Shown here one piece after another: positions 128-23,649 of a stretch of DNA of 35,599 bases. The notes under the pieces are model-generated. The model was not told the origin of the DNA. It ran no database searches and saw only the letters and a program-made list of their open reading frames with translations. This stretch comes from a virus (Duplodnaviria; Caudoviricetes), in the IMG/VR virus record IMGVR_UViG_3300022670_000305, positions 1 to 35,599 of that record; one strand, given 5' to 3'. Each line of letters opens with the position of its first letter. Position 1 is the stretch's first letter. A program made the translations under genes and the position numbers.

Positions 128-910
128 TTATTTATCGTTATTTGCTAACTCTGTGATTTTTAATCTAGCTTCGTCATTCGATAAAAAGAAGTTACACGGA
201 CTTATCGATTCGCCGTTATTTGATTCTTTATATATCATCATTGCCGCAAATAATGTTGATGTTTTATCTTCTAATTTTACACCTTCTACACCAGCTAAAG
301 TAACAATCCAACCAGCCCAGCAATGAGTGGTTGAGCAAGTATGCCAACAGCCCATTTCTAAAGAGTTATCACTACCTATAGCAGTAAGTACTTTTTTATT
401 TAAATCAATTACTTTAGGTGTTGGTGTTTTTTCTTTTTTGCCATAGCAGCCATAGCAGTCAGAGCAGCCAGAGCAGCCAGAGCAGCGAAAGCAGCGAAAG
501 CAGCGAAAGCAGCGAAAGCAGTCAGAGCAGCCAGAGCAGCCAGAGCAGCCAGAGCAGCGAAAGCAGCCATAGCAGTCAGAGCAGCGAAAGCAGCCAGAGC
601 AGCGAAAGCAGCGAAAGCAGTCAGAGCAGTCAGAGCAGCGAAAGCAGTCAGAGCAGTCAGAGCAGTCAGAGCAGTCAGAGCAGTCAGAGCAGAGAAAGCA
701 GTCAGAGCAGTCAGAGCAGCGAAAGCAGTCAGAGCAGTCAGAGCAGCGAAAGCAGTCAGAGCAGCCAGAGCAGTTCCAGCAACCTTTGTTTGTCTTATTA
801 TCATCTACATAACGAGGGTTTTCTTTGGCGAATAATTCGCTAACACCATTTATACTTTTATCTTCTCTTCTAAAAAACTCTGATTTATTTTTAAATATTT
901 CTGTTTTCAT
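128..910 (-). CDS. Cys-rich (Cxx)n repeat protein with C-terminal WHTCxTTHCxAGW domain
   Basis: ORF track 128..943; start moved to ATG 910 because the upstream ORF ends at 924 and an AAGGA RBS follows it; 38 Cxx triplets. Confidence 0.8.
   Translation of the reverse strand: MKTEIFKNKSEFFRREDKSINGVSELFAKENPRYVDDNKTNKGCWNCSGCSDCFRCSDCSDCFRCSDCSDCFLCSDCSDCSDCSDCSDCFRCSDCSDCFRCFRCSGCFRCSDCYGCFRCSGCSGCSGCSDCFRCFRCFRCFRCSGCSGCSDCYGCYGKKEKTPTPKVIDLNKKVLTAIGSDNSLEMGCWHTCSTTHCWAGWIVTLAGVEGVKLEDKTSTLFAAMMIYKESNNGESISPCNFFLSNDEARLKITELANNDK
440..781 (-). repeat. Tandem 9-bp repeat array (TGCTCTGAC, TGCTCTGGC, TGCTTTCGC, TGCTATGGC variants), 38 units
   Basis: Directly visible; encodes CSD/CSG/CFR/CYG. 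Confidence 0.97.
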
Positions 911-923
911 TTCCATCATCCTT

Positions 924-1103
924 TTAATGTAATTTACTAACACTCTTCATATAAGAGTTTTGTTGTTTTAATAAAGCTATTTCAGCGTTTGCTCTTTCGA
1001 GTTGTCCGGTAAAGAATTCAAGGTTAATCACGGAATCTTGAGTTACTTTAATAACCTCATCTGCTAAAGCGTAGAATTCAGATAACTTACAGTACCTAGT
1101 CAT
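924..1103 (-). CDS. Hypothetical protein, 59 aa
   Basis: Manual translation MTRYCKLSEFYALADEV...SKLH; ATGA overlap with upstream ORF. Confidence 0.65.
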   Translation of the reverse strand: MTRYCKLSEFYALADEVIKVTQDSVINLEFFTGQLERANAEIALLKQQNSYMKSVSKLH

Positions 1104-5028: not shown

Positions 5029-5247
5029 CTAGCAAACCGAAAAAGATTTGATATTAACCTCTTTCAGCATCGCCTTTACTGCATCAAGAGTTTTAAATTC
5101 TCGCTGACCACCCCTAGCTGATCTTATTACCGTAAATTCCTCATCAACAGTATGAACGGTAACGTTCCAGTGGATGCCTCTATCTACAGCTGACACAGAC
5201 ACGACCTTTCTTTGTTTATTTAATTCTTTAAGCTCTTTTTGTTGCAT
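5029..5247 (-). CDS. Small hypothetical protein, possible regulator
   Basis: SARGGQREFKTLDAV...L..V.I..F.V pattern recalled from small plasmid/phage proteins. Confidence 0.65.
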   Translation of the reverse strand: MQQKELKELNKQRKVVSVSAVDRGIHWNVTVHTVDEEFTVIRSARGGQREFKTLDAVKAMLKEVNIKSFSVC

Positions 5248-5395: not shown

Positions 5396-5827
5396 ATGAA
5401 AATGATAACAAAGTACAAAGCATTCGATAACACAGAGTATACAGATCAAAGTAAATGCATTGAACACGAAGCCAACTGCAAACAAGCTGACTTGATTATT
5501 AACAAACTTAAAAAGGTACCAAACAGTTGTGATTTTACCAACGGCGAAGGTTATGTTCAGCATGATTACAGTAATGTGCTAAGTGTTAGAAATGAATTTT
5601 TAGAATTTTGCAAGCGATACACAACATTTAAGTGGATACAGGAAACTATTGACGGTGGTTTTGATGTTGATGCGTCTTGGGCTGGTAGGGTAATTGGAGA
5701 AAGCGCGCCTAATTATATATCAAAAATGTGGTATAGGTTTTCATGTATAGATAAGCAGCAAAGAGAGTGGGGGCAACCTTATTACGCTGCAAATAAAGGC
5801 GACCGAAAAGAAGTTCAGCTTAATTAA
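5396..5827 (+). CDS. Hypothetical phage protein
   Basis: KYKAFDNTEYTDQSKCIEHE N-terminus; WGQPYYA C-terminus. Confidence 0.8.
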   Translation: MKMITKYKAFDNTEYTDQSKCIEHEANCKQADLIINKLKKVPNSCDFTNGEGYVQHDYSNVLSVRNEFLEFCKRYTTFKWIQETIDGGFDVDASWAGRVIGESAPNYISKMWYRFSCIDKQQREWGQPYYAANKGDRKEVQLN

Positions 5828-5859
5828 CCAACTAACAACGACAAGGATATAAAAGATGA
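5824..5859 (+). repeat. 36-bp exact direct repeat, copy 1 (stop codon-RBS-start codon linker)
   Basis: TTAACCAACTAACAACGACAAGGATATAAAAGATGA, identical at 7550-7585. Confidence 0.95.
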
Positions 5860-6050: not shown

Positions 6051-6214
6051 TGAGCAGTCAACAAGCATTAGAGGTAGTAGTTAAATTTAATGATCTACCA
6101 AATAAAAAAGAGAAAAAAATTATTGAAATGCAGTATTTGAAAAATGAAATAGGTAATCTTGAGTTTTTCCAATTAGCTCAGCGGTATATAAATAAACTTG
6201 AAAAACAGGAGTAA
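6050..6214 (+). CDS. Hypothetical protein
   Basis: TAATG coupling; AGGAG RBS. Confidence 0.6.
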   Translation: MSSQQALEVVVKFNDLPNKKEKKIIEMQYLKNEIGNLEFFQLAQRYINKLEKQE

Positions 6215-6226
6215 ATAAGAGATAAT
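6198..6226 (+). promoter_or_regulatory. Promoter for the ncRNA array
   Basis: TTGAAA-N17-GATAAT; predicted start near 6232, at the first hairpin. Confidence 0.6.
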
Positions 6227-6232
6227 ATCATT

Positions 6233-6374
6233 GCAGTTGTGAGAAGCTGCTTTGTAAATGGAATCAAACATTAAAGGTTATTTGTATTAGGTCTTAAGCG
6301 CTAAGAGGTTAAAACTTCTCACCGTTTGATTCCATCCTTGAATGTTTAGGGCTTAATACACATAGCCTTTTTTT
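6233..6374 (+). ncRNA. c4/CI-type antisense-attenuator leader RNA
   Basis: GTGAGAAG (6239-6246) and ATGGAATCAAAC (6258-6269) are complementary to CTTCTCAC (6315-6322) and GTTTGATTCCAT (6324-6335), which lie inside an approximately 26-bp stem ending in a T-run. Confidence 0.65.
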
Positions 6375-6444
6375 GTGTCTGTTAGTAGATTGTAGTCGTG
6401 AGTATTTACATATGGTAAACACGAAGCTTGCAAAAGCAGACACA
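6374..6444 (+). ncRNA. Structured RNA unit 2
   Basis: TGTGTCTGTT/AGCAGACACA outer stem; TCGTG/CACGA and TTTAC/GTAAA inner stems. Confidence 0.55.
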
Positions 6445-6477
6445 GCCCCTTTCAAAGCTTCTATAGTCTGTATTGTT

Positions 6478-6577
6478 CTGAGTATGGCGAAATTGGTAAA
6501 CGCAGCGGATAGCCGTGGTTGATCAAGTTATACGCGAGTAACTCAACATCTAGGTTCGAATCCTAGTGCTCAGACCA
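6478..6577 (+). tRNA. Non-canonical tRNA-Leu-like RNA with shrunken anticodon arm and oversized variable arm
   Basis: Acceptor CTGAGTA/TGCTCAG + ACCA; D arm GCG-AAATTGGTAAA-CGC; T arm CTAGG-TTCGAAT-CCTAG; anticodon arm only GCGG-ATAG-CCGT. Confidence 0.8.
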
Positions 6578-6595
6578 ATACAGACTTATCAAACT

Positions 6596-6830
6596 GTCGT
6601 TATAAACAATCCCCAAGCCTTAGGATGAGGCAGCATTTATGTAAGAGACCCGGGGGCCAAACTTCTAACTTAGCCGTGAAGTGGTGGATAAACGAATTAA
6701 ACGCTTGGTAAATTATTTTAATAAGGTTAGGAGATAACGGATTCTTCTTTAACAAAACCGATGAGCCTTAATAAATATTGCCCGTCCGATAAGACGATAA
6801 ACTGTGTTCGATAAATTGTTTATGTATGAC
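6596..6830 (+). ncRNA. Structured RNA unit 4, multibranched, about 235 nt
   Basis: Closing stem GTCGT-TATAAACAAT/ATTGTTTATG-T-ATGAC; inner CCCC/GGGG, GCCT/AGGC, TAAGGTT/AGCCTTA, CGTC/GACG. Confidence 0.6.
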
Positions 6831-6841
6831 TAGCTAATAAT

Positions 6842-6905
6842 AAATTAAATATAGGTCCAAGGGTTACCAAGTAACCGGGTCTAAGTGATAACTATAATTA
6901 AATTT
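6842..6905 (+). ncRNA. Structured RNA unit 5
   Basis: AT-rich outer stem (TATAG/CTATA) around GGTTAC-CAA-GTAACC. Confidence 0.4.
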
Positions 6906-6930
6906 CAACAACCAAACGGATTAAATAAAT

Positions 6931-7299
6931 ATGAAGCCAACAAAAGAAGAGAGAGCGAAAAAGATAAAAGAAAAGGGAGACGCTTACTATTCATTAAGAA
7001 ATAAGCTTGATGATATTCGTTGGCAACTAAAGAGTATAAATGATAGCAAGAAGCGTACACATGCGTTCAAGCTGCTTTATATCGCAATAGACTTGTCACT
7101 TGAACAAATCAGAAAAGACCATGATAGGTATGTAAGGCGAATTCGCAGAGCTGACAGCAACGAAGATGTAAAATTTATTCAAAAAGCGCTTAATCGTGAA
7201 AAGGCAAAAAACGCGAAGTTAGAAAATAAAATTGAAGAGGCTAAAACATCTAGCGGATTATTTATTGATTTTGTACGTGAAAAGATAGGTATGAAGTAA
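6931..7299 (+). CDS. Basic coiled-coil hypothetical protein
   Basis: ORF track. Confidence 0.75.
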   Translation: MKPTKEERAKKIKEKGDAYYSLRNKLDDIRWQLKSINDSKKRTHAFKLLYIAIDLSLEQIRKDHDRYVRRIRRADSNEDVKFIQKALNREKAKNAKLENKIEEAKTSSGLFIDFVREKIGMK

Positions 7300-7352
7300 C
7301 CGTGCCTAAGTGACAGCTTACTTTAAATTTAAATAACTAGAGAGTAAATAAA

Positions 7353-7553
7353 ATGTTTTGTAAACATGAATGGAAAGTTCTTAGTGAGACAACAACACAA
7401 AGCAAGTTTGAGTGCGCTTTAGGTGCTGTAAATGGTATTGCAGATGGTAAAATTGACATTCCTTCTCAAATGGCCTGCGCAGTCAGGAAATATATACAAA
7501 TAGTTTCTTGTGACAAATGCGGCAAATTAAAAAGATTTGTAGAAGATATTTAA
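7353..7553 (+). CDS. Small Zn-ribbon-like protein
   Basis: MFCKHEW...CDKCGK. Confidence 0.75.
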   Translation: MFCKHEWKVLSETTTQSKFECALGAVNGIADGKIDIPSQMACAVRKYIQIVSCDKCGKLKRFVEDI

Positions 7554-7585
7554 CCAACTAACAACGACAAGGATATAAAAGATGA
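7550..7585 (+). repeat. 36-bp exact direct repeat, copy 2
   Basis: Identical to 5824-5859. Confidence 0.95.
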
Positions 7586-8202: not shown

Positions 8203-8366
8203 ATGACTGCGATTAAAATGATTATAATTTTTATCACATGGATTATTGTATTTCCATTAATAGGGATTTTTTAGAAAAAATAGGGGTTGAAAGTAATGCT
8301 TATTTTGCGCTTTACGGGGTGTTATTTGCAGGCGCATCAAATGAAATAAACTCAAGAATTAAATAA
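8203..8366 (+). pseudogene. Small membrane protein interrupted at a T6 run
   Basis: One extra T at 8267-8272 would give a 54-aa ORF with two hydrophobic segments. Confidence 0.45.
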
Positions 8367-8383
8367 ACAAAGGTAGAATAGAG

Positions 8384-10845: not shown

Positions 10846-11172
10846 ATGAAACAAGAAATGCTTTTGAAATTAATAGAGTTACTAGTTGCATATGATGACA
10901 AGACAACATCATCATTATCAGGAACAGCACAAAAAGGCCGTTATATAGTGCTTGGTAATAGAGGTAATGTCGTTGTAGGTGATTTATTTATAACAGGATC
11001 TACTGGTCTTTTAAAGAATGCTAGCGTAATTCGCAGATGGGGAACAACAGGTGGGCTTGGAGAGTTAGCTTTAAAAGGTGCTACAGATAATACAAAATTA
11101 GATCCATGCGGAGAGTTTGAGTTTGAATTACTTACCACGTGCGGGATGATTCCAGTTACAAGTAGTCTGTAA
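10846..11172 (+). CDS. Conserved phage hypothetical protein (DUF6948-like), partner of the Gly-rich protein
   Basis: RGNVVVG...NASVIRRWGTTGGLGELA.KG....TKLD; AAGGA RBS at ATG 10846. Confidence 0.75.
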   Translation: MKQEMLLKLIELLVAYDDKTTSSLSGTAQKGRYIVLGNRGNVVVGDLFITGSTGLLKNASVIRRWGTTGGLGELALKGATDNTKLDPCGEFEFELLTTCGMIPVTSSL

Positions 11173-11468
11173 TGGAAAAGGAAAGCCGATTTAATATCGG
11201 CGACGGCGACGGCAACGGCAACGGCGACGGCTACGGCTACGGCGACGGCAACGGCAACGGCGACGGCTACGGCTACGGCGACGGCTACGGCTACGGCGAC
11301 GGCTACGGCTACGGCAACGGCGACGGCTACGGCTACGGCAACGGCGACGGCAACGGCAACGGCTACGGCGACGGCTACGGCTACGGCAACGGCCACGGCT
11401 ACGGCTACGGCAACGGCAACGGCCACGGCGACGGCAACGGCGACGGCAACGGCGACGGCAACGGCTAA
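11172..11468 (+). CDS. Gly-X (X=D/N/Y/H) repeat protein
   Basis: TAATG coupling to the upstream gene; 44 GX dipeptides. Confidence 0.8.
   Translation: MEKESRFNIGDGDGNGNGDGYGYGDGNGNGDGYGYGDGYGYGDGYGYGNGDGYGYGNGDGNGNGYGDGYGYGNGHGYGYGNGNGHGDGNGDGNGDGNG
11199..11465 (+). repeat. Tandem hexamer array GGC-NAC x44
   Basis: Directly visible; only position 4 of the hexamer varies. Confidence 0.97.
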
Positions 11469-22528: not shown

Positions 22529-22777
22529 TTAAACTTTAAAATGATCAACAAGCAGATTGACAATATCAAAAGCTTCTAACATGGCCTCTTTTTCTATTTC
22601 AAAATGCTTCCTAGCCGTTTCTAATGTCGCTTTTTCTTCAGTAGTTACCGAGAATTGGTTGAATATAAAATCATCTATTGAGTCACTATTGTCTGTATGC
22701 GAGTTTTTAACTGGGACTAATATTTTATAAAGCTCTGCTAGTTTTTGCTTTTCTAGTTTTGATATATTTGTACTCAT
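22529..22777 (-). CDS. Hypothetical protein (moron 1)
   Basis: ORF track; GAGG RBS. Confidence 0.7.
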   Translation of the reverse strand: MSTNISKLEKQKLAELYKILVPVKNSHTDNSDSIDDFIFNQFSVTTEEKATLETARKHFEIEKEAMLEAFDIVNLLVDHFKV

Positions 22778-22778
22778 T

Positions 22779-23021
22779 TTATTTATCCTCTTCCCATTTT
22801 TTTAAATTTAATACCGCATTTTCTAGGCATTCAACCAAAGTATTGCAACGCTCAGATACAACTACACCACCTGAACTTGCTTCATACACTGTAATAATTG
22901 TGATATCACCTACCTTTGAATTAGCAGGGATCCCATGATGTTTCTTAACCAAAAAATCACCAGTTAATAAATACTCTGCACGATCTTTAGTTGACATTAA
23001 TTTCCATTGTTTATCTTTCAT
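22779..23021 (-). CDS. Hypothetical protein (moron 1)
   Basis: ORF track; GGAG RBS. Confidence 0.7.
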   Translation of the reverse strand: MKDKQWKLMSTKDRAEYLLTGDFLVKKHHGIPANSKVGDITIITVYEASSGGVVVSERCNTLVECLENAVLNLKKWEEDK

Positions 23022-23022
23022 C

Positions 23023-23649
23023 CTACTTCTCCTTTATAGATTTAATCTCATTAGCTATACGAAGGAGATAGCCTTTTAGCGGTTCATTCTGCTTGAGCGC
23101 TACCTCTTTGACGTGATTTGACTTAAACTTCTTGTAAGCTTTGCTTGTATCCTCTTGATTATCAAAATAGCCTATGTGCTTTAATTTTCCATTAACGCTG
23201 CATCCAGCACGAAATTTATTGCTGCTTACGAAAAGGCTAACTCCGCGAGGGTAATCCCCTCTTATTGCGGCATTATCACCAAGCAAGCTGTTTATTTCCT
23301 TACTAATAAAAATACACATTTCAGGGGAGTAAACCTTATTCCCTGTAATTATTATATCCTTATCTAAATGCCTATCTTGCCAGTTTTGTTTGATCATCCA
23401 CGCTTTAAAATTAGAGAAAGTTAACCATTCTTCACAAACTGAGCAGTCTTTATATGTCGGCTGAATTTTGTGAAAGCTGGCAGAGTAGCAACGTTTGATC
23501 ATATTTTTCCATCGTATATATATTGGACAGAAAAACCTTTTGCCATTAACTTTAATCTCTGTCTTATAGGTGGAATCATTTACCCCGAAACCGAATACAG
23601 GTTTTCTTGCGGCTAAAGATATTTTGTTTGCTGGGACTTCCTTAAACAT
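23023..23649 (-). CDS. HNH-like homing endonuclease with AP2-like C-terminal domain
   Basis: W.NMIKRCY...YKDCSVCEEW..FSNF...LDKDI..GNKVYSPE; PRGV...KHIGYF. Confidence 0.8.
   Translation of the reverse strand: MFKEVPANKISLAARKPVFGFGVNDSTYKTEIKVNGKRFFCPIYIRWKNMIKRCYSASFHKIQPTYKDCSVCEEWLTFSNFKAWMIKQNWQDRHLDKDIIITGNKVYSPEMCIFISKEINSLLGDNAAIRGDYPRGVSLFVSSNKFRAGCSVNGKLKHIGYFDNQEDTSKAYKKFKSNHVKEVALKQNEPLKGYLLRIANEIKSIKEK

Follow-up and report, generated by a model that had tools for sequence, protein, structure and literature searches.

Genomic context of the element

The window, by which we mean the whole stretch of DNA analysed here, corresponds to a viral record of IMG/VR that comprises 35,599 bases and has an estimated completeness of about 51%. 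A PHROGs scan of its 65 ORFs detects lambdoid replication genes together with siphovirus head and tail genes, the terminase is 54–57% identical to those of Vibrio siphophages (55% to that of Seahorse), and the best sequencing run for the window is from marine sediment. The window phage is a marine siphophage. The subject of this work is a tRNA-like element at 6465–6586, which lies within a 716-nt non-coding stretch (6215–6930) flanked by small ORFs. The element and its surroundings are listed in Table 1, together with a related group of genes from other phages.

Table 1. Features of the locus in the window (coordinates of the window unless a locus is named) and of related genes elsewhere.
Feature	Position	Strand	Basis or remark
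Sigma70-type promoter (predicted)	6198–6226	+	10/12 consensus letters, 17-nt spacer; predicted start near 6233
Conserved leader RNA	6233–6373	+	Common to 12 loci; two predicted alternative folds; attenuator-like
First slot, closing stem and head	6374–6444	+	Each relative has a different head; three Vibrio phages have normal tRNAs at this place
Pyrimidine-rich linker	6446–6458	+	Conserved; left edge of second slot
Closing stem, 5' arm	6465–6477	+	6/7 letters as in E. coli pre-16S around the −115 cut; predicted RNase III cut after 6470
Acceptor stem, 5' strand	6478–6484	+	C1; invariant in 4/4 members; Rfam alignment; predicted RNase P cut before 6478
D arm, Leu-type, with A14, A15, G18, G19, A20a	6487–6503	+	Sequence, Rfam alignment
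Hairpin in anticodon-arm position, 4 bp and 4-nt loop, 12 nt	6505–6516	+	Sequence, alignment to homologues
Variable arm, 30 nt: 5 bp, 4-nt bulge, 4 bp, 8-nt loop	6518–6547	+	Sequence, fold
U48	6549	+	
T arm, 5 bp and canonical 7-nt loop	6550–6566	+	Rfam alignment; 2/5 pairs change on both sides
Acceptor stem, 3' strand; A73; encoded CCA	6567–6573; 6574; 6575–6577	+	Invariant in 4/4 members
Closing stem, 3' arm	6578–6586	+	6/7 letters as in the pre-16S +33 site; predicted RNase III cut after 6582
Further conserved non-coding modules	6591–6930	+	Reach first ORF; abut linker directly in empty-slot relatives
First downstream ORF	6931–7299	+	122 aa, no assigned function
Double-T-loop tRNA-like genes	L142:1193–1295 (−); L175:1340–1442; L153:2627–2735; L165:937–1045		Three in cultured Vibrio phages

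Contigs from eight sequencing runs were compared with this region. A Logan contig of run X1 spans 6352–6844 without a single difference from the window, and X1 alone covers 6501–6523; since X1 is probably the source sample, this identity counters the assembly error that an initial annotation of the sequence had named as an alternative, rather than documenting an independent occurrence. DNA run X12 contains a contig joining 6461 to 6588, which represents an empty form of the locus, as well as the same scaffold with another head. Runs X13 and X15, both from one sample, carry the leader of a relative on a contig starting 8 letters before 6231, and X19, an RNA run by guess only, has a contig with a relative's scaffold. 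The contigs of the eight runs, these five included, give no indication that the element is transcribed.

Several other features of the window deserve mention. Two low-complexity ORFs with no assigned function encode a Cys-x-x repeat protein (128–943, minus strand) and a Gly-rich repeat protein (11172–11468, plus strand), and an HNH endonuclease with two small ORFs (22529–23649, minus strand) is inserted in opposite orientation inside the head gene block. A perfect 19-nt inverted repeat (5210–5228 and 8354–8372, 3.1 kb apart) flanks the plus-strand block that includes the element. Repeated intergenic units precede small ORFs (6869–6912 with 7294–7337 and 5821–5859 with 7547–7585; 77% and 97% alike) and are possible gene-cassette boundaries.

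Structure of the tRNA-like element

The element is real in the sense that every part described for it in the initial annotation is found in the sequence: the 7-bp acceptor stem, the discriminator A followed by CCA, the Leu-type D loop, the T arm, a 12-nt arm in the anticodon position and a variable arm of about 30 nt. The acceptor stem begins with C1-G72 and is followed by a 5-bp T arm, giving the acceptor branch a 7/5 geometry, and the 5-bp stem with 7-nt anticodon loop of a tRNA-Leu is absent, its place being taken by 4 bp and 4 nt. Rfam reports a tRNA match at 6478–6574 (39.3 bits, E 4.8e-5) that leaves the anticodon arm unaligned, and apart from this weak hit the element matches no Rfam family at E up to 1. 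ARAGORN, from which a pseudogene or undetermined call had been anticipated, returns no gene on the element. The predicted fold is considerably more stable than those of shuffled sequences (z = −4.3; none of 200 shuffles equally stable). The cloverleaf as drawn has an energy of −23.2 kcal/mol compared with a minimum of −25.4, that is, 2.2 above it, and the energy-only fold differs in the D and variable arms. The distal hairpin of the variable arm resembles the head of a related element, L140. Two other identifications were considered and rejected: a tmRNA, which would have a tag reading frame and the alanine acceptor pair G3-U70 where G3-C70 stands here, and for which ARAGORN finds no gene, and twister- and hammerhead-like words 3' of the element, which have no Rfam match.

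The initial annotation had emphasized features relevant to leucyl-tRNA synthetase (LeuRS), and in this respect the window copy agrees with it. Judged against the E. coli identity elements listed in PMC9976931 (A73, A15-U48, G18G19, A20a, U54:A58, U55, C56), the set is complete in the window and in one homologue, L055, and the predicted 100-nt product would retain each of its members. The same source describes a tRNA-Leu lacking the anticodon arm that is still charged, and irregular tRNAs that are charged yet do not translate are known (PMC5389517). One could thus suppose that a leucylated RNA ties up LeuRS or EF-Tu, or donates leucine to a non-ribosomal transferase. We regard this as quite improbable: the identity set is incomplete, and the Leu-type D loop absent, in two other homologues, L020 and L045; no tRNA-dependent transferase is found by PHROGs among the 65 ORFs of a record that is about 51% complete; and slower translation would harm the phage.

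Homologues, covariation and the origin of the short hairpin

Viral contigs were scanned with a pattern describing the T arm and acceptor, which yielded at least 119 loci and 99 distinct matches. Three of these are homologues of the element, namely L020 (also L130), L045 (also L126) and L055 (also L132), and a stricter full scan returned the identical three. L020 and L055 were also recovered by a leader-only pattern that makes no demand for CCA; L045 was recovered solely by the CCA-demanding pattern. As a control, pairing between the sequences preceding and following the acceptor stem was scored in the 85 distinct matches that agree with the element at the 3' end and in which the start of the acceptor could be located (mostly tRNA-Pro; 14 of the 99 are unscored). 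The three homologues pair at 11–12 of 13 positions, and the other 82 of the 85 distinct matches listed at 9 or fewer.

The window and its three homologues share the closing stem, the acceptor stem, the T loop, A73 and CCA, while the D arm, the arm in the anticodon position and the variable arm are exchanged among the four; the D arm of the window is shared with L055 and is replaced by a different one in L020 and L045. The view that only the decoding part of a tRNA-Leu is broken is therefore too narrow, all three of these arms being exchanged and two of the four members being without a Leu-type D loop. Among 33 hand-named base pairs, 8 change on both sides within the four sequences, a number reached by 1 of 500 shuffles, and 90.8% of the cells in this test pair, compared with 24–37% in slid controls; as there are only four related sequences, the covariation count is not a probability. 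The short hairpin of the window was scored as unpaired because MAFFT misplaces it. The fold is kept by compensatory changes among the members. The existence of three homologues with compensatory pairs, together with the lack of a normal tRNA in the 12 leader-bearing loci described below, indicates that the element did not arise by random decay or a private deletion, in line with the initial annotation on this point.

The same annotation had proposed looking for relatives with the shortened arm. Relatives exist, but none has it: in all three the arm in the anticodon position is longer than in a tRNA and ends in a tip of 4-bp stem and 7-nt loop, the centre of which reads CGC in two and CAT in one. 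In the alignment to L055, the window has gaps of four letters where the arm begins and of exactly the central triplet in the loop, so that the window hairpin equals the tip of the homologues' longer arm minus that triplet. Because the gap relative to the nearest homologue falls on the anticodon triplet, the TAG in the window loop is probably not a leftover anticodon, contrary to the earlier reading of it as a surviving leucine anticodon; as aligned, it would most simply correspond to U33, A37 and G38. Descent from a normal tRNA-Leu via two deletions around TAG would be less economical.

That the element is instead a tRNA-Leu(UAG) which, despite its odd arm, works as a suppressor or in frameshifting, or that it results from a sequencing slip, is barely credible. 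The 5' strand of the hairpin does resemble that of a phage tRNA-Leu in record G013, but established tRNA geometry leaves no way for a 4-bp stem with a 4-nt loop to place a triplet in the decoding site, and the odd RNAs are nearer kin than this nearest normal tRNA-Leu, with 74–79 identities over 100 letters (79 for L055) versus 65. Against a slip, the reassembled reads agree with the window.

An exact search of viral contigs for the D arm joined to the short hairpin gave no match, so the window is to date the only sequence with the 4-nt-loop head. In BLAST comparisons of the element, phages yielded no more than fragments of tRNA-Pro and tRNA-Leu, covering the T arm or the D arm, and E. coli yielded no match. 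A genome collection gave no match in one search and a single Roseivirga contig in another, which was rejected for having neither leader nor T-loop words; no prophage copy was found. Relaxed ARAGORN settings produced four different, unconvincing calls for the four family members.

A conserved leader followed by two slots

The element is the second of two modules placed behind a conserved leader. The promoter search found 3 sites in the window where 6.5 are expected by chance, and the promoter call is accordingly weak by itself; a similar −10 word is present directly upstream of the leader in homologues. The two predicted folds of the leader are a long stem ending in a U tract and an inner stem combined with loop-loop pairing between 6239–6246 and 6315–6322, the latter pairing being observed to covary between phages. 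Rfam has no match to 6233–6373, and RNAalifold applied to 18 leaders finds only 9 pairs, owing to a poor MAFFT alignment and the two competing folds. Independently of the element, the leader may function as an attenuator or as an antiterminator RNA. Further downstream, ten letters at 6744–6755, kept in L139, equal a stretch of the E. coli rRNA leader that we take to be boxA. The closing stem of the first slot resembles the acceptor of a tRNA-Trp that occupies the same place in Vibrio phages.

Twelve leader-bearing loci, the window included, were collected with two leader patterns, the first contributing 7 of its 21 matches (the other 14 being chance matches in coding DNA) and the second all 4; a further leader search returned the same 7 viral contigs. 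Searches with neighbouring genes led to L004 and L172–L174, none of which has the leader or the element. In the 12 loci the second slot is occupied by this RNA in three, one of which has a sister element in tandem, by a sister element only in five, and is empty in four. The sister elements have the same basal stem with another head and no CCA (L150 is interrupted by a contig end), and their heads range from tRNA-like to plain rods, those of L140 and L149 not being tRNA-like. With one third of the loci lacking it, the element is dispensable. The homologue L045 lies outside this arrangement, its RNA following a different leader upstream of the portal gene. A normal tRNA-Leu(TAG) at this position in close relatives, which would have contradicted the initial annotation, is not seen: there is no normal tRNA in any of the 12 loci, and 12 related IMG/VR records contain no Rfam tRNA match besides the odd elements.

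Cultured phages show what else the slot can hold. A similar leader (77%) is present in Vibrio phage phiV208, and among 15 loci from cultured Vibrio and Pseudoalteromonas phages there are five with normal tRNAs behind a related leader (L162, L163, L166, L176 and L180), three with odd tRNA-like genes (phiV208, NF and 242E40-1), five with neither, and two with tRNAs behind other leaders. In L176 and L180 the normal tRNAs directly follow the linker, which is the place of the element in the window. Normal tRNAs behind related leaders identify the slot as the tRNA locus of these phages, and among relatives it is filled, empty or refilled. The gene of 242E40-1, labelled tRNA-Und, is homologous to the head of L142, and the two represent a second, independent odd form, in which the D arm is followed by a long arm ending in another T loop and then by a small hairpin and the T arm; phiV208 and NF bear a looser likeness to this form. 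In the double-T-loop genes the second T loop tops the arm that stands in for the anticodon arm. Two tRNA-like genes at L178:1125–1280 (Pseudoalteromonas phage Pq0) are unannotated in the record.

The position of the element raises the question of a role in regulation. A released RNA could switch an attenuator-like leader, its own or that of a co-infecting phage, in a structure-based or loop-loop-based manner similar to T-boxes and thereby tune early genes or superinfection. The leader directly in front of the element has a U tract and is predicted to adopt two alternative folds, and short self-complementary GC words occur in the leader loops of all 12 loci and also in the loop of the variable arm. 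We nevertheless consider this explanation unlikely, since complementarity to the own locus does not exceed 7–8 letters and is no better than to other loci, the same leader also precedes normal tRNAs or nothing, and the L045 RNA stands behind a different leader.

A related alternative is suggested by the C4 and CI antisense RNAs, cloverleaf RNAs that are freed by host RNases and have loops complementary to targets in the same operon. An immunity RNA of this type, released by host RNases and pairing through its loops with targets in its own operon, would fit the early-leader position and the variable loops on a constant stem. It is nonetheless largely refuted, and we consider it very improbable: the C4 models of Rfam are unmatched, as is every family other than tRNA at E up to 1; the longest complement in the own context is 7–8 letters for each of nine heads; and the best complement anywhere in the window is 10 letters, a length equalled or surpassed by 190 of 200 shuffled heads.

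The closing stem and its predicted processing

As the initial annotation had noted, the acceptor helix is extended by 11 bp across the CCA, 6465–6475 pairing with 6576–6586. There is an additional pair between positions −1 and 73; C74 is mismatched and C75 and A76 are paired. This closing stem is the strongest inverted repeat at its spacing. Its two arms resemble the sites at which RNase III cuts the E. coli 16S precursor, 115 nucleotides before and 33 after the mature rRNA (PMC8708148). All nine full elements, with stems of about 19–24 bp, start and end with the pre-16S cut-site word (6 or 7 of 7 letters in each arm), the likeness being a post-hoc match to one site of another species, E. coli, rather than of the phage's own host. 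Across 20 records the paired word occurs nowhere except at these elements, and it is absent from a reversed control; the 178-nt element of record G002 exceeds the pattern length. The latter (G002:C1:18738–18915, minus strand; L197) is a second closing-stem element with a T arm beside the stem, 3.3 kb from the first.

A 12-bp stem suffices for one RNase III cut (PMC8708148) and a G-C pair between the cuts is preferred in vivo (PMC6212723). The closing stem has a helix of at least 12 bp with favourable pairs at the cuts, including a G-C pair between them. The 11 paired positions on each side given for a double cut (PMC6212723) are not available, as only 6–8 bp lie outside the predicted cuts, and a single nick is thus possible. 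The 112-nt product that these cuts would leave is predicted to keep C75 and A76 paired (probability of being unpaired 0.01) up to the removal of the 7-nt leader by RNase P, which this pairing may hinder.

The CCA had previously been described as buried in the extended stem. Given the match of the stem to the E. coli pre-16S RNase III site, it is by analogy likely to be buried only in the precursor. CCA is constant in all four members even though one or two of its positions are mismatched in each and the partner letters vary, which fits a need for CCA after processing.

The closing stem also admits an explanation in which the RNA it encloses has little importance. The stem could be under selection because RNase III, by cutting there, matures the early transcript that follows, the heads being leftovers of tRNA genes that are shuffled in a slot prone to recombination and drift as cargo, with a precedent in T7 R1.1, where RNase III matures an early transcript (PMC8708148). 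The stem is the sole part common to all nine elements, the heads include plain rods as well as tRNA-like forms, no element occupies 4 of the 12 slots, and the head in the window has lost letters relative to L055. We consider this a possible explanation, although a less probable one than that preferred below. Against it, the T loop, A73 and CCA are invariant in four of four members, and the D stem, the T stem and the stem at the anticodon position show paired changes; distant phages share the double-T-loop head on different closing stems; and the phages with an empty slot are also without the stem that would serve as the handle.

Discussion

Our preferred interpretation is that the element encodes a tRNA mimic that is processed but does not decode, whose head can be exchanged and whose most probable role is that of a decoy against tRNA-targeting defences. 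We assign it a probability of roughly 0.4. Transcription would start at the predicted promoter and read through the leader into the slots. RNase III, judging from the likeness to pre-16S, would cut on both sides and leave a 7-nt leader and a 5-nt trailer, and RNase P together with 3' trimming by exonucleases would then produce a 100-nt RNA (6478–6577) with the 7/5 acceptor-T arm, the elbow and CCA. By published identity rules the version in the window could be leucylated, and by its structure it should be unable to read a codon. In the least certain step, the RNA would soak up tRNA-targeting defence enzymes, and heads would be swapped as host defences differ.

We rank a decoy first because tRNAs, which have an established role against defences, are the usual content of the locus, because the elbow, acceptor and CCA are kept while the anticodon and variable arms, which nucleases read, vary, and because the presence of the element is patchy. 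Defences that cut tRNAs and counter-measures based on phage tRNAs are described as widespread (PMC11555353, PMC12445682, PMC13096335), and an anti-defence role of phage tRNAs is also treated in PMC10264068, PMC12409363, PMC13056530 and PMC12851939. PMC13096335 leaves decoy and supplement as alternatives for phage tRNAs.

There are also arguments against a decoy. Known phage tRNAs rescue by replacing the cut tRNA (PMC11555353, PMC12445682): according to these sources a phage tRNA with an altered anticodon no longer gave rescue from retron-Eco7 (PMC11555353), and the correct anticodon was needed for rescue from P2-OLD (PMC12445682). A mimic that has lost this loop is also poor bait for nucleases acting on the anticodon, which counts against the proposed role, as does the occurrence of sister heads without CCA, several of which are not tRNA-like.

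A broader form of the proposal, which we regard as doubtful, is that marine gammaproteobacterial phages possess an RNA-only cassette slot in which a constant stem copied from the RNase III site of host rRNA releases interchangeable tRNA-shaped decoys. Whether they have lost the anticodon, have a longer one or have another T loop in its stead, the decoys would counteract immunity directed at tRNAs while decoding nothing, and RNAs C and D of phage T4 would be of the same kind. If a decoy role is true, a pure RNA decoy would be a second anti-defence route beside replacement of the cut tRNA, one that we found elsewhere only as a possibility (PMC13096335), and it would suggest a role for T4 RNAs C and D that can be put to the test. 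The sister forms in the cultured phages 242E40-1, phiV208 and NF make the question open to bench work. Even without a decoy role, the leader, the two slots and the RNase III-like handle constitute an uncatalogued structured-RNA locus that is overlooked by tRNA finders and is a natural counterpart of the tRNA-scaffold trick.

Comparison with known RNAs

The family, its leader and its closing stem are undescribed in Rfam and in the mostly open-access literature searched; additional background is given in PMC3074117 and PMC4810235. The element is a conserved, uncatalogued RNA, a variant among the RNAs of phage tRNA clusters. Canonical class II tRNA-Leu, as in T4 and in the IMG/VR record G013, shares with it the D loop, A15-U48, the long variable arm, the T arm and A73-CCA; the G013 tRNA also has C1-G72 and is the best outside match of our model R1 (39.9 bits). 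The window RNA differs from canonical tRNA-Leu in having 12 extra base pairs beyond the acceptor stem and no 5-bp stem with 7-nt anticodon loop. Irregular or allo-tRNAs are tRNA-like genes of mobile elements, some of them charged yet non-translating (Mukai et al., PMC5389517); they have 8/4 or 9/3 geometry with intact anticodon loops, whereas the window RNA is 7/5 and its anticodon loop is gone. The YrlA Y RNAs, which occur in phages, carry a tRNA elbow on a long closing stem and were in one case an RNase P substrate, but according to PMC4201824 they are permuted (T, closed acceptor, D) and lie beside Ro60, in contrast to the order D, anticodon position, variable, T in the window; no Ro60 is found by PHROGs among the 65 ORFs of the record (about 51% complete), and there is no Rfam YrlA match. 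The E. coli pre-16S RNase III stem and T7 R1.1 have the same word as the closing stem across the cut on both strands; compared with pre-16S, the closing stem has only 6–8 bp outside the cut and encloses about 110 nt. The tRNA-Und of Vibrio phage 242E40-1 (OX241574.1), an automatic label for an odd tRNA-like gene that follows a leader of this kind, differs from the window element in that its anticodon arm is replaced by the long arm with the second T loop and CCA is absent; our literature search found no studies of it.

The closest kind is represented by T4 RNAs C and D (rnaC and rnaD; species 1 and 2), stable small RNAs in the phage tRNA cluster that are presented without a known function in papers from 2010, 2022 and 2025 (PMC12685909, PMC9697503, PMC3014915). 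They share with the window element the position in a phage tRNA locus, and RNA C has a canonical T arm before the closing strand, with other arms replacing the D and anticodon arms. The match of model R1 to rnaC is weak (22.6 bits) and is due mostly to the T arm, no RNase III-like closing stem is seen around either T4 RNA, and the window RNA, unlike them, has a full D arm, a 7/5 acceptor-T arm and heads exchanged between phages. The resemblance is a likeness and not membership. In T4 rnaD (L170:1554–1672, minus strand), the 7-nt loop of the 5' hairpin is one letter off the anticodon-position loop of L045 and L055.
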